A DNA stretch of 64,000 bases. Origin: Escherichia phage phita32. A program made the translations under genes and the position numbers. Below, in pieces: positions 3,711 to 61,323 of the stretch. The notes below the pieces were generated by a model. That model ran no database searches. It was not told the DNA's origin and saw nothing but the letters and a program-made list of their open reading frames with translations. Location of the stretch: sequence record PQ758395. One strand, given 5' to 3'. Position 1 is the stretch's first letter, and each line of letters begins with the position of its first letter.

Positions 3711-4475
3711 TTGAAATTTATCTACAAAGAACACTACCACAAAGGTGTTGTGTGGAGCCTATTTGACGGGTCTGGTGGTGCAGTCATTGACTGGGCAAAA
3801 GCTGGGTACCTGTGCCTGTGCTTTAATGCAGAAGGTGCTGATCACGGCAGTTATGCAGAGGTGATAACCGATCATCACAACATTCACTATGTGGATTATT
3901 GGATTGATCCATGGTTCCCTCAGGAAACTTTTTGCATGTATCCAGCTCCAGACTTTATTCTTGCATTTCCTCCGTGCACGCATTTAGCGGTATCAGGTGC
4001 TGCACATTTTAAGAAAAAACTGGCTAAGGACCCCATGATCCAAATTAATGCTGTAAAGGATGCTCGGGTTGCGGAAGAGCTGGGAGAGATTTACGATTGC
4101 CCGTGGCATGTAGAGAATCCTGTGGGTGTTATGTCCACACTGTGGCGTAAACCTGATTACCGTTTTCATCCTTCTGACTATGGTGGGTATTTACCGGAGG
4201 ATGATGTAAACCCTTGGTTTCCTGAATTTATAGCTCCACGTGATGCCTATCCAAAAATAACTTGCGGCTGGATAGGTAATGGATTTATAATCCCGCCCAC
4301 AAAACCTGTCCCGCAAATAGTTGACGCGGTTAGCGGGTATTCCATGCAACACGCCAAGCTGGGTGGAAAGAGTGCAAGAACGAAGATGATTCGAAGTCTC
4401 ACACCACGTGGCTGGGCAAAAGCCGTATTCTTAGCAAACGAGCCTGTAGTAAGGAGCAGAATTAATGGGAAGTAA
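3711..4475 (+). CDS. putative DNA cytosine-5 methyltransferase-like protein
   Basis: Track ORF starts GTG 3681 inside the terminator; TTG 3711 has AGGAGA SD 7 nt upstream. Motifs resemble C5-MTase I (LFDGSGG), IV (FPPCTHLAVSG) and VI (HVENPVG); short for the family and PCT rather than PCQ. Confidence 0.35.
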   Translation: MKFIYKEHYHKGVVWSLFDGSGGAVIDWAKAGYLCLCFNAEGADHGSYAEVITDHHNIHYVDYWIDPWFPQETFCMYPAPDFILAFPPCTHLAVSGAAHFKKKLAKDPMIQINAVKDARVAEELGEIYDCPWHVENPVGVMSTLWRKPDYRFHPSDYGGYLPEDDVNPWFPEFIAPRDAYPKITCGWIGNGFIIPPTKPVPQIVDAVSGYSMQHAKLGGKSARTKMIRSLTPRGWAKAVFLANEPVVRSRINGK

Positions 4476-6543
4476 ATTTATGGCATCTGCATACAACCGT
4501 TTCGGTGAGCCAAACCCGAAAGCAACTAAGTATAAAAGTGGGGGAAGTGTGAAACGAGACTATCGTGATGAAAAAGAAGTTGAAACTGTAGAGACTGTTT
4601 TAGAAAATACTAAAATTGTCCCTGTCCCACAACAAAATATCGGTCTGATGGCTGCACAATATTTTGGTGTGCGATCAGCATTGTCCCAAGAAGACGGTGT
4701 GACAGTCACTGCAACATATTTCCCATATTACGACCGCTACGGAAATCTGTCTGGTTTCAAAAAGCGTGACTGGACTATTCCTAAAGAGCAAAGGGGCCAT
4801 TTCTCCGTTGTTGGCATCGTAAAGGCCAACTCCCAGATGTTTGGTCAAAAGCTGTGTGCATCTTCCAACAACCGTAAGCAGATTAACGTTTGTGAGGGAG
4901 AAGGTGATGTTATTGCAGCATGGCAGGCTGCATATCAGATACAAGTAAAAGGGATTCTCACCAACGCTAAAGCCCCGGCAAAGGTGAAGCAGTGGGCTAA
5001 AGAGGTCCAGGACGGGATCGACGCAGTTATCAACGGTGGTGATCTGGCAGGAAAACCATGCCTACCTTTTGTTGGAATTAACTGTGGATGTGCAAACGCA
5101 GTAGATACTTTTGCAAACAATGAGAAGTTTATCCGTAGCTATGGAACAGTTGTGCTGGCAATGGATAATGATGCAGCTAACGAGGTAGAGAAGCAAAAAC
5201 ACGTCATTAAAGGTGTTGAGGCCACGCATAATATCGCAGCATTTTTGATGGCTGATAACGTTTACCACGTAGAATACCCTGGTGAAGTAAATGACCCTGA
5301 CGGTGTAAAAGATATCCGAGACATGCTGAAGGCTAAAAAGCTGGAAGATATTGTCAACATGTTCCGGCACCCTGTTAAATATGTGCCTGATGCTGTGTCG
5401 GATTTAGAAGACTTCTCTATCGAGTCTTTGCGGAAAAAGACTTCCAACGGGGTAGATATCAGCGCAGAGTTCCCAAAACTGCAAAAAATGCTAAAAGGCT
5501 TGCACAAAGGGACACTCGTAATGCTTACAGGCCCGTCAGGTGGCGGTAAAACAACTGTAGCTAAAAAACTGGAACACTGTATTGCAAGATACCTAATGGA
5601 CCCGACATGTCCGAAGGCCGATGACTACGAAGAGGATGATCGTCTATGCATGATCCATCTTGAGGAGGACCCAGAGGAAGCAATTAACTCCTTGTATGCA
5701 AACCAGTTAGGGTTTGATGTTAAAGAGTTTGTTGAAGATCCTAGCCAGTTTTTAACTGATCAAGAACACGCAGAGATTCACCAATCATGGGCAAAAGCTG
5801 GAAAAATCAAAGTGTTCAAACATTTCGGATCTATTCCGGTGGACGAGTTGATTACTAAGCTTAAGCAAATGGTTTGCCTGTACCATTGTCGTTATATTGT
5901 ACTGGATCACCTGTCCATGGTAATTTCAGGGCTTAATGTTAAGGATGAGCGAAAAGAACTGGACATGGCTATGACCCAACTGGCTGCGTTTTGTAAGCAG
6001 TTTAACGTGTTTATCTTGGTGATCGCTCACCTCAAGCGTATAGAGATTGTGCCTCCTAAGGACAAGGATGGTAACCCGTTACCTTTCTGGTATCCTGTGC
6101 GAAAAGAGAATTTGCGAGGATCGGCTGGGCTTGAACAGTTGAGTTGGGTAGTCATAGGTGTCGAGGCCGAAGAAATGGTGGATCGTTCTCGTGGACGTGT
6201 CCGTCTGGTAGGTCTTAAAAACCGTCCAGCAAAAACTTTAGGTATTGCTGACACTTTAGTTATGGACCCTCACACAGGCAAGTTCCATGATGCCAGCAAT
6301 TGGTACTGGGACAAAGAAATGCAGATGTTTACAGACGGAGAAGGTGGGGAGGTTGTTTGGAGACCTCAGGCTATGTTTGAGGATCAGGAGCATACAGTTG
6401 TAGAAACACCTATGGGTAAGGTTGTGGCTGATAAGGTTGTAACTCCTACTGTTAAGCCTGTTGACACGCAGGAAGACCTCCAGTACGATGATCCATCCTC
6501 TGACCCTGTCCCTGGTTTTGAGGACGATGAAACGCCTTTTTAA
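4465..6543 (+). CDS. bifunctional DNA primase/helicase (Toprim + DnaB-like RecA-fold ATPase, T7 gp4-like)
   Basis: Toprim-like VCEGEGDVIAAW and LAMDNDAANE acidic motifs; Walker A LTGPSGGGKTT; Walker B YIVLDHLSM; AAGGAG SD. Confidence 0.8.
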   Translation: MGSKFMASAYNRFGEPNPKATKYKSGGSVKRDYRDEKEVETVETVLENTKIVPVPQQNIGLMAAQYFGVRSALSQEDGVTVTATYFPYYDRYGNLSGFKKRDWTIPKEQRGHFSVVGIVKANSQMFGQKLCASSNNRKQINVCEGEGDVIAAWQAAYQIQVKGILTNAKAPAKVKQWAKEVQDGIDAVINGGDLAGKPCLPFVGINCGCANAVDTFANNEKFIRSYGTVVLAMDNDAANEVEKQKHVIKGVEATHNIAAFLMADNVYHVEYPGEVNDPDGVKDIRDMLKAKKLEDIVNMFRHPVKYVPDAVSDLEDFSIESLRKKTSNGVDISAEFPKLQKMLKGLHKGTLVMLTGPSGGGKTTVAKKLEHCIARYLMDPTCPKADDYEEDDRLCMIHLEEDPEEAINSLYANQLGFDVKEFVEDPSQFLTDQEHAEIHQSWAKAGKIKVFKHFGSIPVDELITKLKQMVCLYHCRYIVLDHLSMVISGLNVKDERKELDMAMTQLAAFCKQFNVFILVIAHLKRIEIVPPKDKDGNPLPFWYPVRKENLRGSAGLEQLSWVVIGVEAEEMVDRSRGRVRLVGLKNRPAKTLGIADTLVMDPHTGKFHDASNWYWDKEMQMFTDGEGGEVVWRPQAMFEDQEHTVVETPMGKVVADKVVTPTVKPVDTQEDLQYDDPSSDPVPGFEDDETPF

Positions 6544-6601
6544 TGTTTAACAAAGAGCGGGAGGGGTAGTACAACCGCCTCCCCTTTAAGGAGAACTGTA
6601 T

Positions 6602-9025
6602 ATGAGTATGTGGTCTTTCGATCTGGAGGCCTCCGGGCTTTTGGAAGATCTAGATCTTTATTATCACTGCGGTCTGTTTAAAGAGCTGAATAAGAACCGT
6701 TTTATGCTGTTCCTTCCTCTAAATGACCGCACACACTACTCCAAGGAGGATATAGAGAAGGCCAAGAACTTTATTCTGGCAAAGAAAACTCTTTATAAAG
6801 ATTTTGAAGTCCGCATAGCAGATTTTTCGGAGTTGGAAGGTTGGCTTACAGGCAATTCCGACTGGTCACCAACAGCTTTGAACTGCCATAACTGCTACAG
6901 TTATGACTTTATGCTGATGGAGAGATTATCCGGTATTCATTTTGATATGTTCCGTGATCCTAAATGCATGGGGACTATCAACGACCACCAGGTTAATCTG
7001 TTTGATACGTTGGCGATGAGCCGAATCTTGTGGCCTGATCGCCCTTTACCAAAAGGTTGTCCGGACTCTGTATTCAACCCGGTTACTAAGAAAATGCAGC
7101 CTGTTGGTCCTCACGGCCTTATGGCATGGGGCTACGCCCTTGGTAACCAGAAAGTTCAAATTGATGACTGGCGCGATCTTCCGTTGTGGAAGTATGTGGA
7201 TCGTGTATTCGAGGACGTTATCATCCAGGAGCTGCTCTGGAAAGAGCTGGTAGCGGAATCAAAAGGTGTATTCTACGGCAAATCTGACATGCAGAACTTT
7301 ATGTATGATCCTGCCAAAGAGAAGCCGAAAGGGTTCAAGAAGATCACCTGGAAGAACGCATTACGTCGAGGCATGCTGCAGCACTTCCTGATGGAGCTGC
7401 AGGCCCGTCAGGGTGTATACTTCGACATAGATGGAGCTATTGCTTTACGTGACCGTTGCGATGCGTGGATGAAAGAAATCGCTGATCGTGTTGAACCACA
7501 ACTACCTTTAAAAGAGCTGTCAATGTCTCAGCGGCCCAAGTTCCCTGAAAAGCCGTTTAACCAAGACGGGACAATCTCTAATAATGGTTGGAAATGGTTA
7601 AAAGATAAGCTTGGCTATCCTGTAGACATGAGCGCTTTAGAGTTCAAAGCCCCGCCTAAGCGAGCATTTACCTCTACAGGGGATGTCAGCAAGATGGGGA
7701 TAAAATGGTGTGAAGAGATGGGCTGCAAAGACCCCGATAAGATGGCTGATTTCTTGAGAGGCTATATTAAGGGTACCTCCACACCACAACCTTTACCTAA
7801 AGAGCTAATGGATCAGGCAATAAGTGATCTGCAGCAGAAGCGAATGCCTGACTGCAAGATACCTATGAAAATCGGCAATCAGGACGACATCAAGCGATAC
7901 CTAATCAGTGCTGGTTGGCTCCCAACAATGTGGAGAACTAAAGATGTAACTAAAGACAGCAAGAAGAAAGCTTTACCTGATGCAGATGTTGATGCACGAG
8001 TATATGCATACATGGACGAGCTTTTAGAGTCAGAGTATTGTGACCTGATTATCAACTTCTGGAACAAAACTGATGCTAAGTTTCAGACAACCGTGCACAA
8101 GTTCCGAAGCTTTCCTAACTCCGAAAGGATTAAAAAGGAAGTGTTCGGGAAAATACGTAGAAAAGCCAGGGCACTTATTACTTCTCCGCAACTGAAAGAT
8201 ACGTTTGGACACCTATGCCCAAATCTTGAAAAATTGAACGGAGAGATGGCTAAAGATATCGTCTTGTGGTTATCATTGCGAAACCGCAGATCGGTCCTTG
8301 ATCCAATCAAGGAGGATAAGGTTGATACTGGTCTTCTTAATCACCCACGTTTGAAGATTGACCATAAGCTTCCTGCTAAAAGCTCTGGATTAACAAACAC
8401 TTCCAGACAGAAACACAGTATTTGTGCAAACATGCCTAAACCATCTCCTAAAGTGGTTATGGGTAAAGAGATGCGTAGTCTGTGGGGTGTTCCTCCAGGA
8501 TACTTTGAGATCGGTATTGACGGGTCCAACTTAGAGCAGCTTATCGGGGCTTGGGGTGCCTTTGAGTTCGACAACGGCTTGTATTATGATGTTGTAAGTA
8601 ACGGAGACGCACACCAAAACAATGCTGAGGCATATACAAAAGTAGCAGGCAGAGAGGTGTCCCGTAACGACGGTAAACCTATCACGTATGGGGTTATGTA
8701 CGGGGCACAAAAAGATAAAGTTGCAGATATGCTGGACATCTCTCCAGAGTTGGGACAAAGGGTAATCGATGCACTCTGGGATGCCAACCCAGGTCTTAAG
8801 GGGCGCAAAGAGGATCTGGAGAAATTCTGGGAAGCAACAGGTAAGAAGTTTATCTACTCTTTTGATGGTCATGCTATCTGGACCAGATCTAAACACTCTT
8901 TACTTAATGCATACCAACAAAATGGCGGTGCATCGTTGTGTGACTTAGTTGGAATACTCATGCACCACCAGATGGTGAAGCGTGGGTGGTACGATGAAGG
9001 TGTTCGTCGTATTATTTATTACCAT
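6602..9025 (+). CDS. DNA polymerase, family A, exon 1 (3'-5' exo + palm motifs A and B)
   Basis: N-terminal FDLEASG Exo I-like motif; motif A YFEIGIDGSNLEQL; motif B RNDGKPITYGVMYGAQ; ORF runs 2 codons into intron before stop at 9031. Confidence 0.8.
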
Positions 9026-9301
9026 AAATAACATTGTGGCTTCATAGAGTAATCTATGTCGAATAACCTCTTTAACTGCGGGAAGCCTAAACCTTATGGC
9101 AAGGTAATCCGCAACGAAGCGCTCAAAAGAGCGAACGCTCAGAGGCCATTCCGAAAGGAAGTAGACCAGCAAGTGCGGTCGAAATGGGAGGATTCCTGTG
9201 GTTGCTTATTATAGGAATATGAGATGGTCCGATCCTACGTGAAAACGTATGGCTATGCACGTAATGGTGCGGGGTAGCTTAACGACCTACCTGAACTATT
9301 G
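9026..9301 (+). ncRNA. group I self-splicing intron (no ORF) in DNA polymerase gene
   Basis: Exon 1 ends in U (..UACCAU) pairing with intron GUGG guide at 9037-9040; intron ends in G 9301; P/Q/R/S-like core elements AACTGCGGGAAGC 9074-9086, TAATCCGCAACG 9105-9116, GCTCAGAGGCC 9137-9147, GAGATGGTCCGATCC 9221-9235; splicing restores motif C YHDEYQLQV. Confidence 0.6.
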
Positions 9302-9655
9302 GATGAGTACCAACTTCAAGTGCCTGACACACCGAAGTATAAGACTGTGTACACCTTCGACACAATTGAAGAACTGGAAGCATTTAAGGCAGAGCAGGAA
9401 GCCAAACTTCATGTGTTCGACGGTCATAAGTACAAAAAGGCACGCAAGGATGAGGACGGAAACGAAGTGGTTGACAGAGACGGAAACACGGTGTACGATC
9501 CTATCCTGAACGATGACGGAAAGCTTGAACTTATCTGGAGCCCTGTGGGTGAAATGGTGGTGCATTGCTTCTGGCAAGCTTCTAAAATGATGGGAGTCCC
9601 GTTCCAGATCACAGGTGAATACTTGTGTGGGGCTAATTGGGGTAGTTGCCATTGA
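9302..9655 (+). CDS. DNA polymerase, family A, exon 2 (motif C and C-terminus)
   Basis: Begins DEYQLQV (completes HDE motif C) and ends GANWGSCH, matching T7 pol / Pol I C-terminal signature; no start codon or SD of its own. Confidence 0.7.
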   Translation, partial: DEYQLQVPDTPKYKTVYTFDTIEELEAFKAEQEAKLHVFDGHKYKKARKDEDGNEVVDRDGNTVYDPILNDDGKLELIWSPVGEMVVHCFWQASKMMGVPFQITGEYLCGANWGSCH

Positions 9656-9666
9656 TCTGATAAGAG

Positions 9667-10323
9667 ATGTTTGCTATGGAAGAATGGAGAAAACTGGTTG
9701 GCAAGGAGGCCAACTATGAAGTTAGCAGCAAAGGAAGGATTAAAAGGCTGTCTTACCTGAGGAAGTACAGTAACCAAACAGGTAAAGTTACTTTCAAAGC
9801 TGTCCCTGACAGGATTTTAAAAGGTAGCGTAGACAGTAGCGGTTACATTCAAGTAAATGTGGATGGAAGATCGGAATTGCTTCACAGGTTAATTGCCGAG
9901 ACCTTTCTAGAGCCTCCTTCAAAAGAGCTTGTAGAGGAATGTAAGGCAGCAGGGCTGGACTATGTACCGATTAATCATAAAGACCATAACCGCCTAAACA
10001 ATGCTGCTGACAACCTTGAATGGGCCTCGCCTTCAAAAAATGCACAAGATGTGGACTACGATTACTGTAAAACAAGAGGTGAAAATTCATACTGTGCAAA
10101 ACTTAAAGAGCGAGATGTTGACGAAATATTAAAGCTTTCCAAAACAGGTATGTCGCAGCAAGCTATAGCAGATCTTTTCGGTGTTAATCAGATAACCATT
10201 TCCAATATCTTGACAGGAAGGAGTTGGGCATGGTACACTGGGATACCTAAAACCGCAAGGTGTAAAAACAAAAGGAAGAGATCCCCAAAAAGCATGTCCG
10301 AGCAAAATTTCTCGGTAAGCTGA
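9667..10323 (+). CDS. HNH homing endonuclease (NUMOD4 + HNH_3 + C-terminal HTH), free-standing
   Basis: EEWRKLVG..YEVSSKGRIKRL NUMOD4-like; INHKDHNRLNNAADNLEW HNH motif; C-terminal LSKTGMSQQAIADLFGVNQITISNIL helix-turn-helix. Confidence 0.8.
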   Translation: MFAMEEWRKLVGKEANYEVSSKGRIKRLSYLRKYSNQTGKVTFKAVPDRILKGSVDSSGYIQVNVDGRSELLHRLIAETFLEPPSKELVEECKAAGLDYVPINHKDHNRLNNAADNLEWASPSKNAQDVDYDYCKTRGENSYCAKLKERDVDEILKLSKTGMSQQAIADLFGVNQITISNILTGRSWAWYTGIPKTARCKNKRKRSPKSMSEQNFSVS

Positions 10324-10382
10324 TTGTCACTAATGTAAACTATCAACACATGGAAGTGTTGTTGAGCAAAGAGGAGACTTTT

Positions 10383-10667
10383 ATGGTAGTAGAACCAACA
10401 AAAACATTTACATCTATGACTATCCCTGTTATTATGCAGGTGGAGTGTGTTCAGGTATCTCAAGTGTGGCCTGGCACCAAAATCCCAACAGGGCCTGATT
10501 TCTTTCAGGTTGGGAAAGTGTACAATGTCTGGAAGGCACCAGATTGTTACCCTTTCATTAAAGATGACCGTGGAATGTTGTGGTATCTTGGAAATGATTT
10601 GACACTGCACCTTGGGAATGCTATTATTGCAGTATTCAGACTTAACAAGAAGGAGACCGATCAATGA
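10383..10667 (+). CDS. hypothetical protein
   Basis: Start moved from track 10350 to ATG 10383 with AAGAGGAG SD. Confidence 0.45.
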   Translation: MVVEPTKTFTSMTIPVIMQVECVQVSQVWPGTKIPTGPDFFQVGKVYNVWKAPDCYPFIKDDRGMLWYLGNDLTLHLGNAIIAVFRLNKKETDQ

Positions 10668-10891
10668 CAACTTTGGTTAAAGCTACTTTTGTAGAAGAAA
10701 AGATGACAGACCTGTCCTTCTTTAAAGAAGGAAAGACCTACGAGGTTTATTACGATAAAAATCGTGCAAACAAGATGATTAAAGACGAGGAAGGGATTGC
10801 CTGGTTTATCTCCCATCTGGCAAACGGTGAGTATCATATCTACGGAACCACCCTGCTTGCCAAGTTCGTAGCTGTTGAAGAGGACCTATGA
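10664..10891 (+). CDS. hypothetical protein
   Basis: ORF with AAGGAG SD, ATGA overlap. Confidence 0.45.
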   Translation: MTTLVKATFVEEKMTDLSFFKEGKTYEVYYDKNRANKMIKDEEGIAWFISHLANGEYHIYGTTLLAKFVAVEEDL

Positions 10892-11082
10892 AAGTAAAGT
10901 ATCTGGCTGAGGGTATGAGTAGGTATTTCACCCTTGGTGAAGAATATTGGCCCTTTACAAGCAACGGCGATGTATACGTGAAAGATAATTTCGGCACGCC
11001 GTGGTTTCTGCACTCTAATGGGCTGGGATACTCCATTTACTGTGGTGCAGTGAACAACACAACCCTTGCAGAGTTCGTTTAA
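10888..11082 (+). CDS. hypothetical protein
   Basis: ORF, ATGA overlap with upstream gene. Confidence 0.4.
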   Translation: MKVKYLAEGMSRYFTLGEEYWPFTSNGDVYVKDNFGTPWFLHSNGLGYSIYCGAVNNTTLAEFV

Positions 11083-11092
11083 AGGAGGTAGG

Positions 11093-11792: not shown

Positions 11793-11795
11793 TAC

Positions 11796-24926: not shown

Positions 24927-25161
24927 CCGTTTAAATAACTCCGCGCTAATTAATCCCTTTAGTGAAGATTTGAAGCCAGCCGCCTGGCGTGATGGATTCA
25001 ATACCGAAGGATTTATTTTCAGGCCTGATCTTGAGGAATTTTATAACAATGGATCGAACAACGACAGAGATAATTTTTCTTGTGATGTGCGTAGCGATGG
25101 TACTCCTGGGGGCCATTGCAAACCACATCACTACTACCAGGGGGAAAGGGGGAGACGATGA
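24916..25161 (+). CDS. hypothetical protein (uncertain)
   Basis: ORF with GAGAGGAA SD; overlapping alternative-frame ORF 24989..25174 makes the assignment ambiguous. Confidence 0.25.
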   Translation: MWANRLNNSALINPFSEDLKPAAWRDGFNTEGFIFRPDLEEFYNNGSNNDRDNFSCDVRSDGTPGGHCKPHHYYQGERGRR

Positions 25162-25277
25162 CAACCAAGGATAAGCCCCGCACCGATAAGGCGCGCCGGG
25201 TTATGGTATGGCTTGAGATCATCGCCCTTGAAATATTGCTAGGCGTAGGGATGTACTTTATCGCTGTAAGTAACTAA
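25158..25277 (+). CDS. small membrane peptide (39 aa, not in ORF track)
   Basis: ATG 25158 with AGGGGGAAAGGGGGAG SD; MTTKDKPRTDKARRVMVWLEIIALEILLGVGMYFIAVSN; terminator follows. Confidence 0.4.
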   Translation: MTTKDKPRTDKARRVMVWLEIIALEILLGVGMYFIAVSN

Positions 25278-43000: not shown

Positions 43001-43534
43001 CTACAGATGGTTGCTGATGGTGTCAAGAAAATTATCCCGTTCTTTCTCAGAGTTTTCACGGGTGTATCTGAAAAACATATCGAGAATAACCTTATTGATA
43101 TATTCCAGCTCCTCTGTGTTCAGGTACTTAGCAGGATCTACAATGACATCCCAAATATCATACAGACCACACTCATGATATCCATAACGCCACTCAATTG
43201 TCAAGCTGAGCGGCAAATCTTTACCGTCACAAACAACCTTCCATCTACATATGTTGGTATCTGGGCGTATCTGTGCACGGTATACCTGTACAAAATCCAA
43301 TTTGAATTTGAGGTATTCGTCATGCAATTTAAGCACAAAGCTCTCGATTTGTGGAGACACTTTTGCAGCAAACTGTGCGTATTTGTATTTGCACTGGATG
43401 ATCTTTCTGCGTTTTGCAGTTAAATTTTTTGCCGCCAGTTGTTCTTCAGTGTATCTCCACCTACGATCAACAAACGCAACAGGGTCTTTGTCCCCATAGA
43501 GGTCTTCCCAGTTAATCAGAAGCATACCTGTCAC
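43001..43534 (-). CDS. hypothetical protein
   Basis: 177-aa ORF. Confidence 0.45.
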   Translation of the reverse strand: MTGMLLINWEDLYGDKDPVAFVDRRWRYTEEQLAAKNLTAKRRKIIQCKYKYAQFAAKVSPQIESFVLKLHDEYLKFKLDFVQVYRAQIRPDTNICRWKVVCDGKDLPLSLTIEWRYGYHECGLYDIWDVIVDPAKYLNTEELEYINKVILDMFFRYTRENSEKERDNFLDTISNHL

Positions 43535-44473: not shown

Positions 44474-44758
44474 CTACCAGGTCACTGTCAAGTAGGCAAC
44501 TGTGTTATTTTTCTCCGGAGAGATGCCAACAACATCCACCTGCAGACCTCCTTCCCTCAAATCCCCAACAATGTGTGGGAAGTAGTCTGAGAGGTGTGAT
44601 GGGAGATTTATCGAAAATCCACATCCCAGAAAGCCTGCTAACGCTTTATTTTGTATCTCCCCTACAATCGCATCATAAATAGAGTTAAGCTCGTCAGGAA
44701 GCGTTACAGGGCGTTTTAGCGCTAACTGGTGCAACTTGTCCTTAGCACTCATTTTCAT
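44474..44758 (-). CDS. hypothetical protein
   Basis: Start moved from track 44827 to internal ATG 44758 to remove overlap with the MTase gene. Confidence 0.4.
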   Translation of the reverse strand: MKMSAKDKLHQLALKRPVTLPDELNSIYDAIVGEIQNKALAGFLGCGFSINLPSHLSDYFPHIVGDLREGGLQVDVVGISPEKNNTVAYLTVTW

Positions 44759-45288
44759 TTCAAGTCTGCCTCTGGAGGTGCCAACCACATAAATGGCGGC
44801 AGGTCTAAACGGTTCTTCTTGTCCCACACAAAATATGCATATGCTTGCCCGTCAGTTCTGCCATTCGATTGGAATGATGGACGCTTAGATATTGTGATCA
44901 CAGTGGTAGGTGCATTATCAAGCCACCATTCAAATCTGGCTTTGCTTTCCAGAAAATTAAGACGCAAAAGCATAATAACTACGTCAGCATCTTTCAACGC
45001 CTTGTCTACAAACTCACGAGCCAAGCTGTACGGTGGGTTGGTGATAATACAGTCAACATGGTTGTATTCTGTATTCAGATAGTCAACACCTTCTTGGATT
45101 TCTCCCCATGCAGATCCTAACGGCATACGGGAGTAGAACACGCCTGAGGCGCTATTTCTGCAAGGCTCCAAATAGGTCCAATCTTCTGGGAACGGAATGA
45201 GGTCATACAGCCCTTCTGCACACCACTCCGGTGTCACATACTCATCGTAGGCGTTACGTTGTTCATCAGGTTTTCTAGCACAAGTCAT
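44755..45288 (-). CDS. small DNA methyltransferase (N6-adenine / N4-cytosine type)
   Basis: Motif IV DCIITNPPYS (NPPY). Confidence 0.6.
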   Translation of the reverse strand: MTCARKPDEQRNAYDEYVTPEWCAEGLYDLIPFPEDWTYLEPCRNSASGVFYSRMPLGSAWGEIQEGVDYLNTEYNHVDCIITNPPYSLAREFVDKALKDADVVIMLLRLNFLESKARFEWWLDNAPTTVITISKRPSFQSNGRTDGQAYAYFVWDKKNRLDLPPFMWLAPPEADLK

Positions 45289-53205: not shown

Positions 53206-53208
53206 ATA

Positions 53209-54297
53209 TTAAAACTCCCAAATTTCTTCTTCAGCGTCGTTAACAGTTGTGTTGACGCGGTAGTCAGTGTTCGACATTTCTTGGTTCGCCGTCTGTTGCA
53301 ATGAAGGTTTCATCCACACCTGCATAAACGGTAGCGGGTCCTTTGTTGGCGGCACAAAGTCTTTGTCGATGTCGTAGTAATCATAAATCGGTGAACAGTT
53401 ATAGTCAACCCATTCTTTAAGCAACGGTGAGTTAAGACCTATAATCGCTCTTCCTTCGCTGAAAATATAGTCACTCCAACCGTACTCTTTGGTTCGTACT
53501 TCATCAAGAATCTCTTTTAACTCCCCTTTTATCTCCAGGAAGCTTTTCTCCCATGCGGGATCGTTAAGCAAGATATCAATGATGGCAAAATCACCTTTCG
53601 AATGTAGCATTTCGTCAAGCATGATTTTTTGAACAAGCTGCGCCACCTGAACAAAAATACCCTGTTCAGCTACTGCGAAAGTGCATGCAAAACTTGCAAT
53701 AAACTCAATACTTTCTAGAGCTAAAAGTGCAAAAAGCGCTCTAAGAATGCATTTCCGCACAATATCTTCTTCAACACTAGAAGGATCCAGGCGGTATTTT
53801 GCACCAATAACCTCAAGCTCTTGCATGTATTTGACAATAACGCCGGATCTGCTCAGAACGTTTTGGTTTTCCTGAATCTCTTCTATAATCTCACGGGCAT
53901 TGGGGAGGCATTGTCTAACAATCTCTGAGTAAGTTAGTGCGTGAAGAACTTCAATCTCTGACTGTTTCATCAATAGAGTGAAAAGCTCACTATTAGTGAT
54001 GAATGGTGAAAAGAGGCAGATGATCGATCTTGCCGCAACGCTATCAGCCTCCCATTGCCACATCAAGGTCTGCACCATCACGTCATAAGTTGACTTTGAG
54101 CATGTTACAAAATCTGAAATAGATTGCGACAAATCCACTTCATCCTCTGCCCAATCTTGCTCTTTTTGTTTTTTGTATAGTTCAAACAGTTGTGGATATT
54201 TTTTGTTGATAGAGTCGTACATACCCATTTGCTGTCCCAGAAACAGCGGATAGTCACCAGTTTTATGAGCGGTGTTCTCAGCATTAAATACAGCCAT
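53209..54297 (-). CDS. nrdB: ribonucleotide reductase class Ia beta subunit
   Basis: Colinear with E. coli NrdB (PLFLGQ..; EF..SFACSFA-like ESIEFIASFACTFA); start moved from track 54357 to ATG 54297 (AGAGGTAG SD). Confidence 0.8.
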   Translation of the reverse strand: MAVFNAENTAHKTGDYPLFLGQQMGMYDSINKKYPQLFELYKKQKEQDWAEDEVDLSQSISDFVTCSKSTYDVMVQTLMWQWEADSVAARSIICLFSPFITNSELFTLLMKQSEIEVLHALTYSEIVRQCLPNAREIIEEIQENQNVLSRSGVIVKYMQELEVIGAKYRLDPSSVEEDIVRKCILRALFALLALESIEFIASFACTFAVAEQGIFVQVAQLVQKIMLDEMLHSKGDFAIIDILLNDPAWEKSFLEIKGELKEILDEVRTKEYGWSDYIFSEGRAIIGLNSPLLKEWVDYNCSPIYDYYDIDKDFVPPTKDPLPFMQVWMKPSLQQTANQEMSNTDYRVNTTVNDAEEEIWEF

Positions 54298-54335
54298 TAT
54301 TCTACCTCTAAAATGGGGCCGAAGCCCCTTTAAAA

Positions 54336-56651
54336 TTATAGTGCACAGCTTTCGCAATACGGATCTTCAACTGAACTATCTGCAATCAAAGGATAGTTCT
54401 TTCTGGTTTCATCTTCAGCCTGTTTCTTGGCATGAAGTTCCTCTGCCAAGGAGTCACCAGCACCAACCCTAGAGTTTAAATAATACCATGTCTTCATCCC
54501 GAATTTAGTGGCACGGATAAGGTACCCTAACTGCTCCTTCATTGAAATTTTACCATCTTTCAACTTGGTGTAGTCTATGTATAAATCCGCGCTGATTGCC
54601 TGACCTGTGAATTTTTGAATCACAGCATACATATCGATCATGTCGTTAGTATCAACGTCCCAAGCCGAGGTGTAATACTCTTTCAACTCATCATAGTCAG
54701 GAACGATAAACAGCACCTGCCCTTGTGGCGATTTTTTAAAGATAATGTGCTCACGGACAGGATAAACCCCATTAGTGGTGTTTGTTGCCAGCGAAGAGCT
54801 TTCATTAGGCATATATGCTTCAAGAACGCTATTACGTAGCCCACCATTTTCAATGATTTCTTTACGTAACCCTTCCCAATCCTGTTTAAGAGAAGGATCT
54901 TTCACCACGCTATCGACCTCTTTGTTATAGGTGTCGATTGGTAACCAACCTTCTGGATATTTTGTTTTATGCATCCACTCGCAGACACCCCGCTCTTTTG
55001 CCAACCGTAAACTTGCCTTATGCAAGCTGTAGCTGTGAAGTTCTGCAAGATCGTGAACAAGCTGTTTACTTTCAGGAGATCCGTAAGTAACCTTGTGGCT
55101 GGCAATAAAATGTGCAACATTGGTAAGGCCAACCCCGATGGATCTGCGTTTTTTAACAGTACTCTCCATATTTTCATACGGATATGTCATGATTTCCATA
55201 ACATTGTCAATCATAAGCACCGTGTAGTATGCAACATCCTCATACTCCTCTGGGGTAACCCTTCCAGCTACAAGAGATGACAGGAAGCACAATGCAACCT
55301 CACCATCATCAACATCGTACTTGAAGATATTACGCATATCTGAATAGCCTTTTGTCGGGAGGGCTATTTCTGCACACAGGTTACTTGAATAGATCACATC
55401 TTTAAAAGGTGTATGTCTATTCATCTCATCTGTCCAGTATACGTACAGCCTTCCCACCTCAGTACGCTGCGTGATCAGCTCAACAGCAAGATCTCTAGCC
55501 CGGATCCATGTCTTAGGAATACTGTCATCTTTAGCAATACGCTCAACCTCTGCATCGAACTCCTCCATAGACATGGTGAAGATACCCTCATGCAGTTGAG
55601 GAGCGTGCTTATAAGAAACAAGCATCCAATCTAAATTCTTAGCCACACGGTTGATAAACGACCTATTAATACCGATGGAGTAGTCCATGGTGTTGATTCT
55701 TTTTGAAGCAACAGTCATAGGGTTTCTCAAACGGATTAGCTCATCAATCTGCGGGTCCAGTGCAAGGAATGATACTGTTGCAGAACCGCCACGTGATTGT
55801 TGTCTGTTCTCCTTAACACCAGCATCAATACCTCGATAATATGGAATCTTACCCATGTGTTTAATAGTGTTACCGCGAACACCATCACCTGCAGATCTTG
55901 ATGATAAATAGTAGCCGATACCTGCTTGGTTAACCGTCATTGTGTACGCAACTTCACGTGCCACACCAATAGATTTTGCTGTATCGTCAGCTTTTATTAC
56001 ACAACAAGATGCATACCCTGTCTTACCTGTGCGCAGCCCGTTTAAGTACGGTGTCGGGGCATTGATCTTTAAGTCGGACAGATAAGTGTATAATTTTACA
56101 ACATCGTTGATACGACGTTCTTTCGGCATATTCTTCATGACAGCCATTGCTATCCCCATAAACATCATCTGGGGAGATTCAAACAAGGTGTCTTTAAGAG
56201 TATCCTTGATCCCGTATTTGTCGCGAAACTGTTTAAGGACTGCATAGCCATAACCGAGATCTTTACTGTGGTCAATAACAGCGTCTAAAGTGTTTAGCTC
56301 GGTAAAGCTATATCCCATATCCTCCCAATACCCTTTCTCAACCATGTCGTTGTAAAATGATGGTAAGGAAGGGATCTTTGTAAACCCTCCAAAAGCCTCT
56401 TTATAAATCTGACCAATAAGAACACGACCAGCCATACGGGAATGTGCTTCGTCTTTACGGCTAACACAGGAGTCTATGATAGCTTGGTTAACTTCTTTGG
56501 TTGTACATCCATCATACAGTCGTTTGTATGCATCCAGTGCAATATGTGACCAATTGCCGTTACCGTCGTCACCGAAAATAGCTGCCTTATTTAAACGTTC
56601 TGGATCGAATGCCACTCCACATCCGTTGCTTTTAATTACCTTGGTGATCAA
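54336..56651 (-). CDS. nrdA: ribonucleotide reductase class Ia alpha subunit
   Basis: 771 aa; ATP-cone VIKSNGCGVAFDPERL; large RNR catalytic body; adjacent to nrdB. Confidence 0.85.
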   Translation of the reverse strand: MITKVIKSNGCGVAFDPERLNKAAIFGDDGNGNWSHIALDAYKRLYDGCTTKEVNQAIIDSCVSRKDEAHSRMAGRVLIGQIYKEAFGGFTKIPSLPSFYNDMVEKGYWEDMGYSFTELNTLDAVIDHSKDLGYGYAVLKQFRDKYGIKDTLKDTLFESPQMMFMGIAMAVMKNMPKERRINDVVKLYTYLSDLKINAPTPYLNGLRTGKTGYASCCVIKADDTAKSIGVAREVAYTMTVNQAGIGYYLSSRSAGDGVRGNTIKHMGKIPYYRGIDAGVKENRQQSRGGSATVSFLALDPQIDELIRLRNPMTVASKRINTMDYSIGINRSFINRVAKNLDWMLVSYKHAPQLHEGIFTMSMEEFDAEVERIAKDDSIPKTWIRARDLAVELITQRTEVGRLYVYWTDEMNRHTPFKDVIYSSNLCAEIALPTKGYSDMRNIFKYDVDDGEVALCFLSSLVAGRVTPEEYEDVAYYTVLMIDNVMEIMTYPYENMESTVKKRRSIGVGLTNVAHFIASHKVTYGSPESKQLVHDLAELHSYSLHKASLRLAKERGVCEWMHKTKYPEGWLPIDTYNKEVDSVVKDPSLKQDWEGLRKEIIENGGLRNSVLEAYMPNESSSLATNTTNGVYPVREHIIFKKSPQGQVLFIVPDYDELKEYYTSAWDVDTNDMIDMYAVIQKFTGQAISADLYIDYTKLKDGKISMKEQLGYLIRATKFGMKTWYYLNSRVGAGDSLAEELHAKKQAEDETRKNYPLIADSSVEDPYCESCAL

Positions 56652-56899
56652 TTTGCTTCCTCCACTTCATCAACGTATTTATCAAGGCAGGTATCAGTAT
56701 CTTGCTGGATAAAGTTATCCTCTTCTACAGAGATATTTATAATTTTACCTGTATACTCGTCATAATAAACATCATCATACATTTTAATATCGTTTGTCAG
56801 GCCGTTGAACCAAAGCCAACCAACATATTCTGCCCGACTTGCAAAACCAAGATCCTTCCACTTGGAGTTATGACTCATCTTCACCACCTTAGCTTTCAA
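56648..56899 (-). CDS. hypothetical protein
   Basis: ORF, overlapping stop/start. Confidence 0.4.
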   Translation of the reverse strand: MKAKVVKMSHNSKWKDLGFASRAEYVGWLWFNGLTNDIKMYDDVYYDEYTGKIINISVEEDNFIQQDTDTCLDKYVDEVEEAN

Positions 56900-57389
56900 T
56901 ACCGAATAATTTTTCTAGGCGATGCAGATCTTCAAAATTGAAAGGTTCATCAACAATATGAATATCTTCAGCCTTTTCAGATTGTTTTGTATACTTTCTT
57001 ACATTAACACGATCCTCTACAGGGATATCATACGGAAGATCTTGAACAAGCATTGCCTCACCGGGTGCTTTATCTACATCTAAAATATCTACACCGTTAT
57101 ACATTTGCGGGTATCTAAAGTCTGCACGCATGACACCAGCAAATACATCTGCCTTTCGATAATGTGTTGGCTTATTTTTGCATCGAACGTTTTTTCCACG
57201 AAGAACATCAATACTTTTTAAATCAAACCCTACGGCAAAGAGTGCAGCTCGGAGACCGTTTCGTGTGCGAACGTTAAACCCTGGAACGGTAGATAGGAAA
57301 TCCAAAGTAACTGAAATAAATGTCTTTTTAGGAATCATAACATTACTCATATCTGTCTCCATTTCTGGCTCACCAACAAAGTGAGCCAT
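56889..57389 (-). CDS. hypothetical protein
   Basis: 166-aa ORF in nucleotide-metabolism operon; no motif assigned. Confidence 0.4.
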   Translation of the reverse strand: MAHFVGEPEMETDMSNVMIPKKTFISVTLDFLSTVPGFNVRTRNGLRAALFAVGFDLKSIDVLRGKNVRCKNKPTHYRKADVFAGVMRADFRYPQMYNGVDILDVDKAPGEAMLVQDLPYDIPVEDRVNVRKYTKQSEKAEDIHIVDEPFNFEDLHRLEKLFGIES

Positions 57390-57448
57390 TATTATAGATT
57401 ATCTGATAATATTAGTCAACACAGAAGTTACCTATCGCTGTGATAGGA

Positions 57449-58432
57449 TTAACCTTTCACGAAGTGGTTATTAAGCAGTTGTCTGTGCTGAACCCACCCA
57501 CAAAAGTTGGCAGACCAGAATTTACCATCACGGTCTTGATGGGTTACACCTTCCTGCCAAACACAGCTGTCTTGTGTGATTTCACATGAAGATAGATAGT
57601 AGTTTAAACGTTCCATTGCGTTATCGTGATCCATAGGTGTTGCCTGGTGCTCGTAAGGGCTTGCATGAATACGATCCCCACCAATCAATTTTTTAGCCAC
57701 ACTGTCTGCCTTTTCAAAAGTGCTGTCAATATTTCGATAAGATACTTGTGCACAGCAACTAGCACTAATAGACAGAGCTTCTCCAGTATCGAGAATGCAA
57801 AGCTTTCCTTCTGTGTCACGTACAGCATAGTTAAACTCGCCGTCCAAATAAACGTGCTCTACATATGGTGTGTGCCATTGACCAGGTTTAAGGATTTCAG
57901 GAGTGCTATTCATAAGAGCCTCCCACATGCAATTAGCCAACATCTGAATAGTAGGGTCAGCATCGTGCCAGCAACGGAGATGGAAGAAATTATTCCACTC
58001 TGTGCTTGTTACAACTGTTTTCATGCGCTGAAACGGCTCCACTAAACGGTTACATACTTGCTTATGGTAACCAGCAAGGGCGAACTTCTCTGCATGCCAA
58101 GCGGCGTTTTTTGCAGCTTCTTTCCAAAACTCTTCAGGAGTTAACTCCATGTCAGTGTACTCTACACGGATCTTTTGATCGTGTTCCCCACCATCTTCCA
58201 TCCCCCGCTTATTTACACCGAAGCGAACTGGCATTGCCGGATTCTCCACAATCTGTTGTAGCATCTTGCCGACAGGCACTGCACGGGAAGACATGGCGTT
58301 TCGGCTGAACACTCGATGTGTCATAAGCTCTGAGTGAATAATTCGAGGATACTCTAGCTCAAAAGTGGTGATACGCTTACCTTTCTCGGAAATACTGTCA
58401 GCAATGATCTTTGCAGTGCACAGTTTTAGCAT
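57449..58432 (-). CDS. thyX: flavin-dependent thymidylate synthase
   Basis: ThyX signature HSELMTHRVFSRNAMSSRA (RHR-x7-S variant) and downstream R..DADPTIQ region, comparable to Thermotoga ThyX. Confidence 0.65.
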   Translation of the reverse strand: MLKLCTAKIIADSISEKGKRITTFELEYPRIIHSELMTHRVFSRNAMSSRAVPVGKMLQQIVENPAMPVRFGVNKRGMEDGGEHDQKIRVEYTDMELTPEEFWKEAAKNAAWHAEKFALAGYHKQVCNRLVEPFQRMKTVVTSTEWNNFFHLRCWHDADPTIQMLANCMWEALMNSTPEILKPGQWHTPYVEHVYLDGEFNYAVRDTEGKLCILDTGEALSISASCCAQVSYRNIDSTFEKADSVAKKLIGGDRIHASPYEHQATPMDHDNAMERLNYYLSSCEITQDSCVWQEGVTHQDRDGKFWSANFCGWVQHRQLLNNHFVKG

Positions 58433-58632
58433 TATTTAGCTCTCCTTGTTTTAATTTTGGAAATTTCGTCTGGGTTTATGTTAGCCTTAAATGCAAGATA
58501 TCTGTTAAACATATCAGAGCACATGTCTTGGGTGATCCTGGAGGCATACACTAGCTTACCACCCAGATCATATACCTCCAGCCAGTCACCGTATCTGACT
58601 ACAGGATCGCCACCTTTAGAACATCTGCCCAT
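58432..58632 (-). CDS. hypothetical protein
   Basis: short ORF, overlapping stop/start. Confidence 0.4.
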   Translation of the reverse strand: MGRCSKGGDPVVRYGDWLEVYDLGGKLVYASRITQDMCSDMFNRYLAFKANINPDEISKIKTRRAK

Positions 58633-58633
58633 T

Positions 58634-59227
58634 TCAAATACCTTCTAAAAACTTTCCTATTTTATACCAGCTATTAGTGGTATAGTCAACACTGACCTTT
58701 AACTCCTCGAATTGCTCATAAGGTGTGTCTTTTAGGATTTTAATAACTTCAGGTCGTGAAGCGAATTGGTTCAGGTATTCATGCCTGTCGTCAATTATAA
58801 CATCTACAGCCACATTACCTTTGAAATGTGTGGCGTAGAAGCCGTGACCCTGGGTGTGATCATCCAGATCCATAAAATCACTGGTCCAACGCTTTAAGAA
58901 CCTTGATTTAGATGCAAGGTGACCTTTCTTGCATACCGAGATAAATGCGAGCTTGTGACCGCGAGCCACCAAATCTTTCATAACCTCAATAGCCCCCTCT
59001 TCAGGCTTAAGAAAGTCGTAGAGGAACGGATCACTCCAGAAATCAAAAGGTCCTATGATGTTTTCTTTGGGGCGATCAGGCCAATACTTTGACAGATCGT
59101 AATACATCAGCCCATTAGAAGGTTTAACGACTGTCTTACTGGCTGGACCATACAAACGCTCCAACCACTCCCACCATGCTGTTCCTGAATCTACCAGTGT
59201 CAAATCTACATCAATTCCGATTAACAT
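58634..59227 (-). CDS. HAD-superfamily phosphatase, 5'(3')-deoxyribonucleotidase-like
   Basis: N-terminal IGIDVDLTLVDSG resembles HAD motif I (DxDxT). Confidence 0.45.
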   Translation of the reverse strand: MLIGIDVDLTLVDSGTAWWEWLERLYGPASKTVVKPSNGLMYYDLSKYWPDRPKENIIGPFDFWSDPFLYDFLKPEEGAIEVMKDLVARGHKLAFISVCKKGHLASKSRFLKRWTSDFMDLDDHTQGHGFYATHFKGNVAVDVIIDDRHEYLNQFASRPEVIKILKDTPYEQFEELKVSVDYTTNSWYKIGKFLEGI

Positions 59228-59838
59228 TCTTCTTGTGCCTCTTTAGCATCAATATACTTGCACACAATCTCCGATGCACATTCCCAAGGTGCACCTTCAG
59301 GATTTACAACATCGAACTCAATCCCTTTTATTCCGTTCTTTTCCAGACTTAGATAGGTTCTGGAATCATTTCCCCAGTCATATCCGACACGGTGAATACG
59401 GAACAACAACAGATCTCCACCTGTGCTGTATGCGTACTCGCTAAGGCATGCCAGCTCCTCTTTGAAGCCACCATCGGAGTAAACAACAACCCCTTTACCT
59501 TTAGGGAAATCTTTCTTCAAAGATTCGACTGCGGCTTTACCGAAAGCATCTTCACCAAAAATAGGTTTAATCAGATTTTCACTACAATGGATCATCCATT
59601 CTCGCGGAGAAACATGCTTGCCGTCTATCATTAAGAAAGGGCAAGGCTCTTCTTTGTAGTGGCGGTCATAAAGTGCATTCCAGAGCTGAGGAGTTACACC
59701 AGCTGCCTTAATTGCCACACTGAATAGCATCTCCTTAACCTCACGGTGGTGTGAGTTAGGAATAGCTTCCAACAAGAGATCTGCAATGTGATCCTTACCA
59801 CTGCTAGGTGGGGCGTTAAGAACAATAATATCCATCAA
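59221..59838 (-). CDS. deoxynucleoside monophosphate kinase-like P-loop kinase
   Basis: N-terminal IIVLNAPPSSGKDHIADLL resembles T4 gp1 dNMP kinase LIFLSGVKRSGKDTTADFI. Confidence 0.55.
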   Translation of the reverse strand: MMDIIVLNAPPSSGKDHIADLLLEAIPNSHHREVKEMLFSVAIKAAGVTPQLWNALYDRHYKEEPCPFLMIDGKHVSPREWMIHCSENLIKPIFGEDAFGKAAVESLKKDFPKGKGVVVYSDGGFKEELACLSEYAYSTGGDLLLFRIHRVGYDWGNDSRTYLSLEKNGIKGIEFDVVNPEGAPWECASEIVCKYIDAKEAQEEC

Positions 59839-60038
59839 AAACCTCCGTGGTATTCTTCAACTGCATCAATAATACTTTTACACTTATCTACCAGCTCGTT
59901 AGCCACTACAGCATCGTCTTCCCAAACAGCTTCCTCGATCTGATCAAGCAATGATCGCATCTTACCCATCATTTCTGGGATAAAGTTTTCTGAAAAGCTG
60001 TCTGGAATTGTTAACTTTAGTGTCATTGCGGTCCCCAA
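59835..60038 (-). CDS. hypothetical protein
   Basis: short ORF, overlapping stop/start. Confidence 0.4.
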   Translation of the reverse strand: MGTAMTLKLTIPDSFSENFIPEMMGKMRSLLDQIEEAVWEDDAVVANELVDKCKSIIDAVEEYHGGF

Positions 60039-60053
60039 TCATACTATACGTTA

Positions 60054-60512
60054 TTAGAAGTTTGTTTTTACACGTCCCTTTTCATCGACCTCGTTATTAG
60101 CTAAAAGCGTTACAAAGTCTGTGAAACGGACATGAAGAACTCTTTTCTTATCAAGGTATCCTAAAGCCACCCCTGAGAAATTTAGCATCAAAGGGGCTAA
60201 AGAAGCTCTGGCACTGAAATGCTGTTGTTCTACCCTTCCAACACCCTTAGTGTAGGATGGGTTAAGATTGTAAGTTCTGAATCCTAGTTTTGTTGGAGCT
60301 TTAGAATTAAAAACAACTTTATAGCGTTTCTTACTCAACTTATGCTCCAGGATAAGCATTCCCTTATCACCCTTGATAAGTTGAAAATCTGTAAAGTGCT
60401 CTTTTAAGACGAAAGGTAGTGCCAGCCCCATCGCCTGCCCCCTTTGTACCGCTGTCTCACCAAAAGCTTTTGCATCAGTAAGTTCTTTGGTCAAGTCTAT
60501 GCTTTTGATCAT
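60054..60512 (-). CDS. hypothetical protein
   Basis: ORF; overlaps 3' end of the MTase ORF by 38 nt, so one boundary is uncertain. Confidence 0.4.
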   Translation of the reverse strand: MIKSIDLTKELTDAKAFGETAVQRGQAMGLALPFVLKEHFTDFQLIKGDKGMLILEHKLSKKRYKVVFNSKAPTKLGFRTYNLNPSYTKGVGRVEQQHFSARASLAPLMLNFSGVALGYLDKKRVLHVRFTDFVTLLANNEVDEKGRVKTNF

Positions 60513-61323
60513 ACCTAGTCTCCAAAATGTATTGTAGTTCTTTCTTACCTATACTCTTCATTCCGGCAGTCTTACCTGCTTCTTCTTGAAAAGAAGAATA
60601 GCATTCAGCAAACACTCTGTCAACACCGTCAACTAAAGATTTTATGAAATATGTTGATTCTTCAGATTTTGGGTCATCATCCCCCAATACTTTTCCAGCA
60701 TTATACCCAACACGTCTTACACAGAAGTCGTAGTCATCTGGTGTGCTAAAAGAAAATAACTTATTCTCTCCAATCTTTACAGGATCCCTATTGCACTCCT
60801 TTTTCTCCCAAATTTGGAAAACACATGGCACGTCATAAGGTTTGCCATTAAGTAAAAACGAGTTCTTAGGGCACCTTTCGCTGTAGACAAGGTGCATCGA
60901 CATGTCCAGTTTGTTTGCAAAAAATATTTTTTCAAATGTCCGTGGCAAGATGAAGGCTATAGCCCCTCCAGGCTCTAGCAATGATGCACAATGGTTAAAG
61001 AATTTGCAAGCTAAAGATGAATTCTTGCCAAAGGGTGGGTTACCTATGAAGACATCTGCCTTGGGATGCACCTCCAAGAAGTTTGCCTGAATGCACGGTG
61101 TTGGTCCTTCAAATTCAGGATCTGGTACTAAATCGTACGACAGTATCTCTGAAAATAGTTTTGAAAAAGAACCCCTTCCAGCAGAAGGCTCAACGTATGC
61201 ACAATTCCCATACTTATCTTTTACTTTACCAACAAGGTATTCTGCATACTCAGGGTTTGTGTAATATTTGTCGTTGGACTCTTTCTTACTCAAAGTGCCT
61301 CCAAAAGGAAAAGGGAGGCGCAA
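60475..61323 (-). CDS. DNA N6-adenine methyltransferase
   Basis: Motif I-like YVEPSAGRGSF and motif IV FIGNPPFG (NPPF). Confidence 0.7.
   Translation of the reverse strand: MRLPFPFGGTLSKKESNDKYYTNPEYAEYLVGKVKDKYGNCAYVEPSAGRGSFSKLFSEILSYDLVPDPEFEGPTPCIQANFLEVHPKADVFIGNPPFGKNSSLACKFFNHCASLLEPGGAIAFILPRTFEKIFFANKLDMSMHLVYSERCPKNSFLLNGKPYDVPCVFQIWEKKECNRDPVKIGENKLFSFSTPDDYDFCVRRVGYNAGKVLGDDDPKSEESTYFIKSLVDGVDRVFAECYSSFQEEAGKTAGMKSIGKKELQYILETRYDQKHRLDQRTY

Follow-up and report, generated by a model that had tools for sequence, protein, structure and literature searches.

The 64,000-nucleotide stretch of Escherichia phage phita32 analyzed here in full (sequence record PQ758395; hereafter, the window) raises the question of what use a phage has for several DNA methyltransferases. 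An earlier note, made from the letters of this DNA, had proposed up to three such enzymes of different classes with no partner restriction endonuclease nearby and had read them as self-protection against several host restriction systems. We consider it likely that three solitary (orphan) DNA methyltransferases, here called P1, P2, and P3, are encoded in the window and that they belong to the core genes of the rV5-like Vequintaviruses. This is in large part known territory: all three genes are annotated in relatives, P2 has been characterized as an identical protein, and P1 is characterized through a close family member. The positions in question, numbered from the first letter of the window, are as follows.

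3711..4475, + strand: P1, small Dcm-like C5-cytosine DNA methyltransferase, 254 residues, TTG start
44755..45288, − strand: P2, minimal 177-residue N6-adenine DNA methyltransferase with NPPY, GATC-specific (Dam-like)
60475..61293, − strand: P3, predicted 272-residue gamma-class, type II-like N6-adenine methyltransferase with NPPF; the longest reading frame extends to 61323
2410..2466, no strand: empty cassette site, where the type III Mod-like fourth methyltransferase of relatives would sit

Three methyltransferase genes are conserved among rV5-like phages

In megablast searches with both ends of the window, all of the more than 100 phage records covering at least 80% of the query were rV5-like Vequintaviruses, the best matches (95–97% nucleotide identity) being rV5, EmilHeitz/Bas49, and WalterGehring/Bas51. 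By sequence, then, the window is a stretch of an rV5-like Escherichia coli phage. The three open reading frames (ORFs) exist on the strands given in the earlier note, and upstream of each come a terminator-like hairpin, rich in GC and with a run of T, and, closer to the start, a Shine–Dalgarno sequence. P1 lies in a replication module and P2 and P3 in a nucleotide-metabolism module, with a helicase, a primase, a DnaQ-like exonuclease, and EndoVII among the neighbors across the three loci. The BASEL records of relatives name P1 a “Dcm-like C5 cytosine methyltransferase” and P2 and P3 each a “putative N6 adenine methyltransferase”. At an identity of at least 90%, P1 is present in 116 phage records, P2 in 118, and P3 in 120; the fourth methyltransferase of some relatives reaches 88 records of ≈118 close relatives (about three quarters). 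Judged by these sequence matches, P1, P2, and P3 are core Vequintavirus genes and the fourth methyltransferase is a variable accessory.

The motif [DNS]PP[YFWH] occurs in only 3 of the 216 stop-to-stop frames of at least 80 residues in the window, namely P2, P3, and an 84-residue frame at 24946..25200. Neither this motif scan nor tblastn with the fourth methyltransferase revealed any other methyltransferase-like ORF in the window. Profile searches, which the earlier note had suggested as a check, gave a mixed answer. All three proteins have strong PHROG matches: P1 to phrog_757 (“DNA methyltransferase”, 1e-86), P2 to phrog_799 (“DNA methyltransferase”, 5e-67), and P3 to phrog_5172 (function unknown, 5e-129). 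Their Pfam-A and NCBIfam matches, on the other hand, all fall under the curated cut-offs. P2 scores 19.2 against 28.1 bits for Dam (PF05869), 20.1 against 26.4 for EcoRI_methylase (PF13651), and 16 against 97 for TIGR01712, and P3 scores 18.5 against 25.3 for Eco57I; in P1, PF00145 of Pfam-A has no match even at E values up to 1, and a precomputed PF00145 match exists for just 3 of 120 listed P1 homologs. The three proteins are divergent phage versions rather than textbook members of their families.

The MG0656xx “Campylobacter phage” records (H3, H9, H17, H18, and H29), unannotated and labeled Campylobacter jejuni, are also 95–97% identical to the window, and their host label looks doubtful.

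P2 is a GATC adenine methyltransferase

P2 begins at ATG 45288, preceded by GGAG, and has its NPPY at residues 84–87. This small enzyme proved to be identical, at 177 of 177 residues including D69, D79, and T83, to bas51_0176 of phage Bas51, which occupies the same genomic position adjoining a ClpP-like protease. Bas51 escapers of the retrons Asa1 and Squ1 map to D69, D79, and T83 (Nakamura et al. 2025, PMC12548924). These residues are located in the S-adenosylmethionine (SAM)-binding and NPPY region and, among the three annotated adenine methyltransferases of Bas51, are found only in bas51_0176, the others having Q/A/I and C/G/E.

The methylation data for Bas51 settle the specificity. In the wild type, N6-methyladenine (6mA, or m6A within a motif) was called at 1405 GATC, 509 GTAC, and 576 other positions, and in the T83P mutant at 35 GATC, 511 GTAC, and 349 other positions (PMC12548924, S4 Table). 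The Bas51 genome has 703 GATC and 258 GTAC sites, so that 1405 of 1406 GATC adenines and 509 of 516 GTAC adenines were called, meaning that essentially all are methylated in Bas51 virions. Modified phage DNA, for which the earlier note had proposed sequencing as a check, is thus seen, as 6mA at both motifs, in a relative with an identical P2. Since the host was dam+ and only 35 GATC calls were left in T83P, host Dam adds almost nothing in the mutant. P2 makes G(m6A)TC, as demonstrated with bas51_0176, whose specificity it must share by identity.

P2 aligns to the catalytic core of P3 only (hhalign probability 88%, 148 columns), the alignment stopping where the C-terminal domain of P3 starts; P2 is therefore minimal, an enzyme that has no recognition domain of its own beside the core. 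The claim of three different classes stands to the extent that one enzyme is C5-cytosine-like and two are N6-adenine enzymes, but the latter two share one catalytic core. A sequence search for P2 relatives of solved structure returned none. The T83P, D69G, and D79G mutants of Bas51 plate like the wild type on a retron-free host (PMC12548924), and P2 is accordingly dispensable for plating in the laboratory, as seen with these mutants. Expression of bas51_0176 in E. coli is reported to be toxic (PMC12548924).

About 1.2 kb downstream of P2, the reading frame at 43001..43534 (− strand) is, by position and length, the counterpart of bas51_0171, a “putative glycosidase”. A premature stop in that gene, R87*, also gives Bas51 escape from retron Asa1 (PMC12548924).

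P1 is a C5-methyltransferase-like protein

The longest ORF at the P1 locus (3681..4475, 264 residues) starts from a GTG that sits within a terminator-like hairpin. An AGGAG Shine–Dalgarno sequence at 3698–3702 precedes TTG 3711, giving a protein of 254 residues whose start agrees with the GenBank annotation of relatives. The start at 3711 in the earlier note can therefore be kept, but the length of 264 residues attached to it belongs to GTG 3681. The P1 stop overlaps the start of the primase/helicase gene (4465) by 11 nucleotides (4465..4475). In EmilHeitz, a homing endonuclease gene is inserted between the two (locus L001, 5812..6483); homing endonucleases are also present in the polymerase, NrdD, and terminase genes of relatives, and the homing-endonuclease content is polymorphic.

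With PF00145 unmatched, the placement of P1 among the C5 methyltransferases rests on fold and motifs. A database search returned 3548 P1 relatives, mostly of 225–250 residues and mostly on phage-sized contigs, and motif invariance was judged from an alignment of 37 family members. Motif I reads LFDGSGG, with G20 and S21 and the SAM loop DGSG invariant; motif IV reads FPPCT, with P87-P88-C89 invariant and PCT as the family norm, compared with PCN in DNMT3 enzymes; and in motif VI, E135-N136-P137 are invariant and followed by V138. The AlphaFold2 (AF2) model of P1 has a mean predicted local distance difference test score (pLDDT) of 89.5. All 49 of its Foldseek matches in the PDB (E ≤ 1e-3) are DNMT3A/3B catalytic domains or 3g7u, the DNA methyltransferase of prophage CP-933R, with TM-scores of ≈0.5, and the best fold is DNMT3A/3B (E 4e-6). 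P1 is also 54% identical over its full length (E 1e-87) to KarlJaspers bas06_0055 (711-bp gene, MZ501090), a Dcm. The earlier note had ranked the C5 call as its weakest, on account of PCT instead of PCQ and the small size. That ranking no longer holds: PCT is family-invariant, as is ENP, and together with the DNMT3-like fold and the KarlJaspers match they make P1 a solid case of a genuine C5-methyltransferase-like protein. By analogy with its characterized relative, it would make 5-methylcytosine (5mC), probably in a Dcm-like CCWGG context.

P3 is predicted to be a gamma-class DNA adenine methyltransferase

The longest ORF for P3 (60475..61323, 282 residues) starts within a hairpin, and TTG 61293, which comes after the hairpin and a GGAGG, gives a protein of 272 residues with NPPF at residues 85–88. 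An N6-adenine methyltransferase with NPPF had been proposed for this position, and the gamma motifs and M.TaqI-like fold agree with it, the likely start being 61293. Motifs X, I, and IV follow one another as YYTNP, EPSAGRGSF, and GNPPFG, ahead of a C-terminal domain of ≈105 residues, and the family invariants are T12, E35-P36-S37/G39/G41/F43, D54, and G84-N85-P86-P87-F88-G89. The AF2 model (pLDDT 92.9) has as its top folds M.TaqI (1e-7), type I HsdM, M.BseCI, and CamA, with METTL5-like RNA enzymes lower, and a fold search of BFVD returned no named specificity. P3 also matches the PADLOC MTase_II model PDLC03255 over its full length (5.3e-34; residues 8–253 on profile positions 2–249 of 269). 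Many P3 homologs are listed with PF26055. Motifs, profile, and model together predict a gamma-class, type II-like DNA adenine methyltransferase.

Bacterial relatives of P3 are paired with a putative nuclease

To learn from the genomic company that P3 keeps, we scanned bacterial and archaeal genomes, a single one for each species; from the 199 relatives that this gave, we examined the best 80 loci. In 25 of these 80, the P3 homolog is directly followed, on its own strand and after a median of 14 nucleotides, by a conserved ORF of ≈200–220 residues (at ≈4770..5450 in loci L013, L023–L028, L030, L036, and others; alignment A3). This partner matches the PADLOC REase_II model (2e-12), and since it does, the P3 family would act on DNA. 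Its conserved motifs are QxHGKxFE, D...SIK, and NPKIDSKxQRRLQCS, and its invariant residues are H7, G8, F11, E12, D35, K42, K151, Q157, R159, Q161, and C162. Searches of Pfam, NCBIfam, and the PDB (R.PabI included) gave no match for the partner family, which every source names “hypothetical”. The downstream ORFs of the bacterial loci L004 and L005 are nonhomologous.

From these arrangements, the P3 family in bacteria appears to supply the methylase of a type II-like system, and its partner becomes a candidate member of a restriction enzyme family not yet described; the phage copy is solitary. Within the window, the ORF at 60054..60512, which overlaps the 3′ end of P3, was considered as a degenerate nuclease partner; it is unrelated to the bacterial partner and does not match its profile.

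In four loci from Lachnospiraceae, Bacteroidetes, Faecalibacterium, and Clostridia metagenome-assembled genomes (L016, L075, L080, and L081), local depletion of GTAC is extreme, with 5 occurrences in total against ≈56 expected. In L016, L080, and L081, the upstream gene of the pair is the partner.

Which enzyme methylates GTAC?

GTAC methylation in Bas51 is independent of P2, with 509 calls in the wild type and 511 in T83P (PMC12548924). The candidates for it are the P3 ortholog bas51_0200 and bas51_0070, the fourth methyltransferase. The latter, a beta-class enzyme of 441 residues, has a DPPF motif and fits type III Mod models along its whole length (PADLOC MTase_III, 1.5e-205). In Bas51, where the cassette is intact (L003, 1957..3282), it is bordered exactly by a shared hairpin and ribosome-binding site on one side and by the ATGAAACGTTATAA start of the following gene on the other. 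The cassette is frameshifted in EmilHeitz/Bas49 (L001, 2409..3797) and cleanly absent from the window, between 2409 and 2467; a tblastn search of the window with bas51_0070 gave no match.

GTAC is rare in these phages, at an observed-to-expected ratio of 0.62 in the window and 0.59 in Bas51, which makes it as under-represented as CTAG; GATC, at 1.0, is not avoided. For the PvuI site CGATCG, 7.6 occurrences are expected in the window and a single one is present. In the pooled bacterial loci that have both methyltransferase and partner, GTAC is the most depleted of the 4-bp palindromes (171 observed, 291 expected), and it is also the palindrome that differs most between these loci and those with the methyltransferase only. 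We favor P3 as the probable GTAC enzyme of Bas51, with somewhat more confidence than not. A larger proposal, that P3 is the GT(m6A)C enzyme, that its bacterial relatives form an undescribed two-gene type II family with a new GTAC-directed nuclease, and that the phage took the methylase half as an antidote, is one we offer tentatively, as a possibility short of probable.

Functions the enzymes may have

For P1, P2, and P3, no cognate restriction endonuclease is recognizable among the adjoining genes, the neighbors being replication and nucleotide-metabolism genes or PHROGs of unknown function. As far as can be recognized from the flanking genes, the absence of a partner reported in the earlier note is borne out, and on this ground we regard the three as orphan methyltransferases.

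We envisage that during infection the enzymes methylate newly replicated phage DNA, with which host Dam fails to keep pace, P2 making G(m6A)TC, P1 5mC in a probably CCWGG-like context, and P3 most likely GT(m6A)C. The benefit would be the pre-emptive masking of a few short sites (GATC, GTAC/GGTACC, or CCWGG) from nucleases that cut the unmethylated form, for example those of the MboI/DpnII, RsaI/KpnI/PabI, and EcoRII types and possibly MutH. The cost, demonstrated in relatives, would be that methylation is sensed by retrons carrying the same motifs in their multicopy single-stranded DNA (msDNA). The P2 ortholog bas51_0176 triggers retrons Asa1 and Squ1 (PMC12548924), and the 711-bp dcm of phage K42 is the trigger of retron Ec86/Eco1 and raises msDNA 5mC as measured by liquid chromatography–mass spectrometry (bioRxiv 10.1101/2023.08.16.553469). 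The documented consequence of a P2 ortholog and a P1-family enzyme so far therefore runs opposite to protection.

Self-protection is plausible in a narrow form only, covering GATC and, by analogy, probably GTAC and CCWGG, and not as general anti-restriction. None of the six restriction systems tested on the BASEL phages targets GATC, GTAC, or CCWGG, and the under-representation of GTAC is consistent with selection at that site. Besides the Bas51 paper (PMC12548924), we found no restriction-digest or methylome data for rV5 in the literature.

Weighing the alternatives

Could P3 act on RNA instead? As an m6A methyltransferase for rRNA or tRNA, akin to METTL5/Ta1320 (COG2263), it would explain why its best sequence-profile match in the PDB, a weak one, is Ta1320 (3e-4), followed by METTL5, why PH1948 and Ta1320 are among its fold matches, and why some of its homologs are named “predicted RNA methylase” by JGI; its C-terminal domain is, moreover, conserved family-wide, which is unusual for restriction-modification methyltransferases of variable specificity. 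Yet the highest-ranking folds are DNA enzymes, the type II DNA methyltransferase profile is matched over its full length, and the REase_II-like partner shares an operon with P3 relatives in 25 of the 80 bacterial loci, including one that lies within a type I restriction-modification island, so that we hold an RNA target to be very improbable. A stronger competitor accepts DNA as the substrate and assigns the GT(m6A)C of Bas51 to the type III Mod-like bas51_0070; P3 would then have another DNA target, concealed among the “other” 6mA calls, or be poorly active, and the window phage would be without GTAC methylation. The enzyme is intact in Bas51 with its DPPF, palindromic targets are known for beta-class enzymes, 349 “other” 6mA calls remain in T83P, and the tie between P3 and the motif is indirect. 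The sites of type III Mods, however, are normally asymmetric and methylated on one strand, and GTAC is fully methylated on both strands, while the end-to-end match of bas51_0070 is to models of just that kind. An asymmetric 5-bp site would occur by chance ≈275 times in 140 kb, counting both strands, a number that fits the residual “other” calls and is thus compatible with a Mod-type enzyme as their source. P3 for its part is small and type II-like, and its relatives are paired with a putative restriction endonuclease. We therefore judge bas51_0070 to be an unlikely source of the GTAC methylation and keep P3 as the favored one. The window phage, being naturally without the Mod-like cassette, offers a natural discriminating test.

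A different objection concerns purpose. The methyltransferases may serve phage DNA metabolism, by marking DNA for packaging or recombination, by avoiding MutH nicking of unmethylated GATC, or by timing expression. All three genes stand in replication or nucleotide-metabolism modules and are strictly conserved next to a variable fourth methyltransferase, the phages are still highly sensitive to restriction, and GATC is not avoided; but the three bas51_0176 mutants plate as wild type on a retron-free host, and a scarcity such as that of GTAC is what restriction pressure on a site usually leaves behind. We rate this explanation as quite unlikely. Returning to three motif-specific orphan enzymes with a narrow protective role, several points count against it. 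None of P1, P2, and P3 reaches a curated Pfam-A threshold, P1 has I183 where the K42 Dcm has K176, and the CCWGG specificity of that Dcm was itself assumed from E. coli Dcm and msDNA-motif mutagenesis (bioRxiv 10.1101/2023.08.16.553469). The Bas51 methylation run consists of 6mA calling only, in one relative. The P3–GTAC link is indirect, and the type III Mod-like enzyme is encoded in Bas51 as well; the bacterial GTAC depletion is not significant per locus (Mann–Whitney p = 0.09), and its pooled form is carried by ≈5 loci, with L013 and L052 showing none. Finally, six systems have been tested on the Vequintavirinae (EcoKI, EcoCFT_I, EcoRI, EcoRV, EcoCFT_II, and EcoP1_I), and the phages were “exceptionally susceptible” to every one of them (PMC8594841), from which it follows that any protection is confined to specific methylated motifs.

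Significance

As stated in the earlier note, the finding adds little: many GenBank records already annotate these genes. The C5 call can be upgraded from weak, and broad anti-restriction is to be narrowed to a few short motifs, with the enzymes double-edged since retrons sense them. The residual novelty lies in the probable assignment of GTAC to P3 and in the uncharacterized bacterial partner family. If the specificity of P3 were settled, it would give a specificity to the whole bacterial family of methyltransferase plus partner.

Comparison with known systems

P2 is the same protein in the same position as bas51_0176 and differs only in the phage that carries it, at ≈97% nucleotide identity between the two phages. 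For P1, the closest characterized relative is the Dcm of K42 and KarlJaspers, phages whose genomes are 95.4% identical (bioRxiv 10.1101/2023.08.16.553469). The catalytic cysteine and glutamate of that protein, C82 and E128, and the first lysine, K175, correspond to C89, E135, and K182 of P1, and both enzymes are small, with a minimal target-recognition region and a DNMT3A-like predicted fold. P1 differs in an N terminus that is 18 residues longer and in I183 replacing K176, and it belongs to a phage of the Vequintavirinae, in contrast to the Drexlerviridae of K42 and KarlJaspers.

P3 resembles M.TaqI and other gamma-class type II enzymes in its motif order (X, I, IV), its predicted M.TaqI-like fold, and its short C-terminal domain. 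M.HpyAXII, an enzyme of 331 residues with Asn87 in motif IV, makes GT(m6A)C (PMC2588503), and its catalytic asparagine stands at almost the same position as N85 of P3, a likeness drawn by description only. M.PabI and M.CviQI are likewise GTAC-specific m6A methyltransferases. P3 is smaller than M.HpyAXII and is without a nuclease partner in the phage. The partner of its bacterial relatives cannot be recognized as the half-pipe glycosylase found alongside M.HpyAXII and M.PabI, as it has no sequence match in the PDB, R.PabI included.

The host's own Dam and Dcm give the same products as P2 at GATC, which is demonstrated, and possibly as P1 at CCWGG, which is inferred, although their folds and classes are unrelated to those of P2 and P1 and P1 is about half the size of E. 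coli Dcm. With the same products as host Dam, and possibly Dcm, the phage reproduces its host's own methylation pattern.

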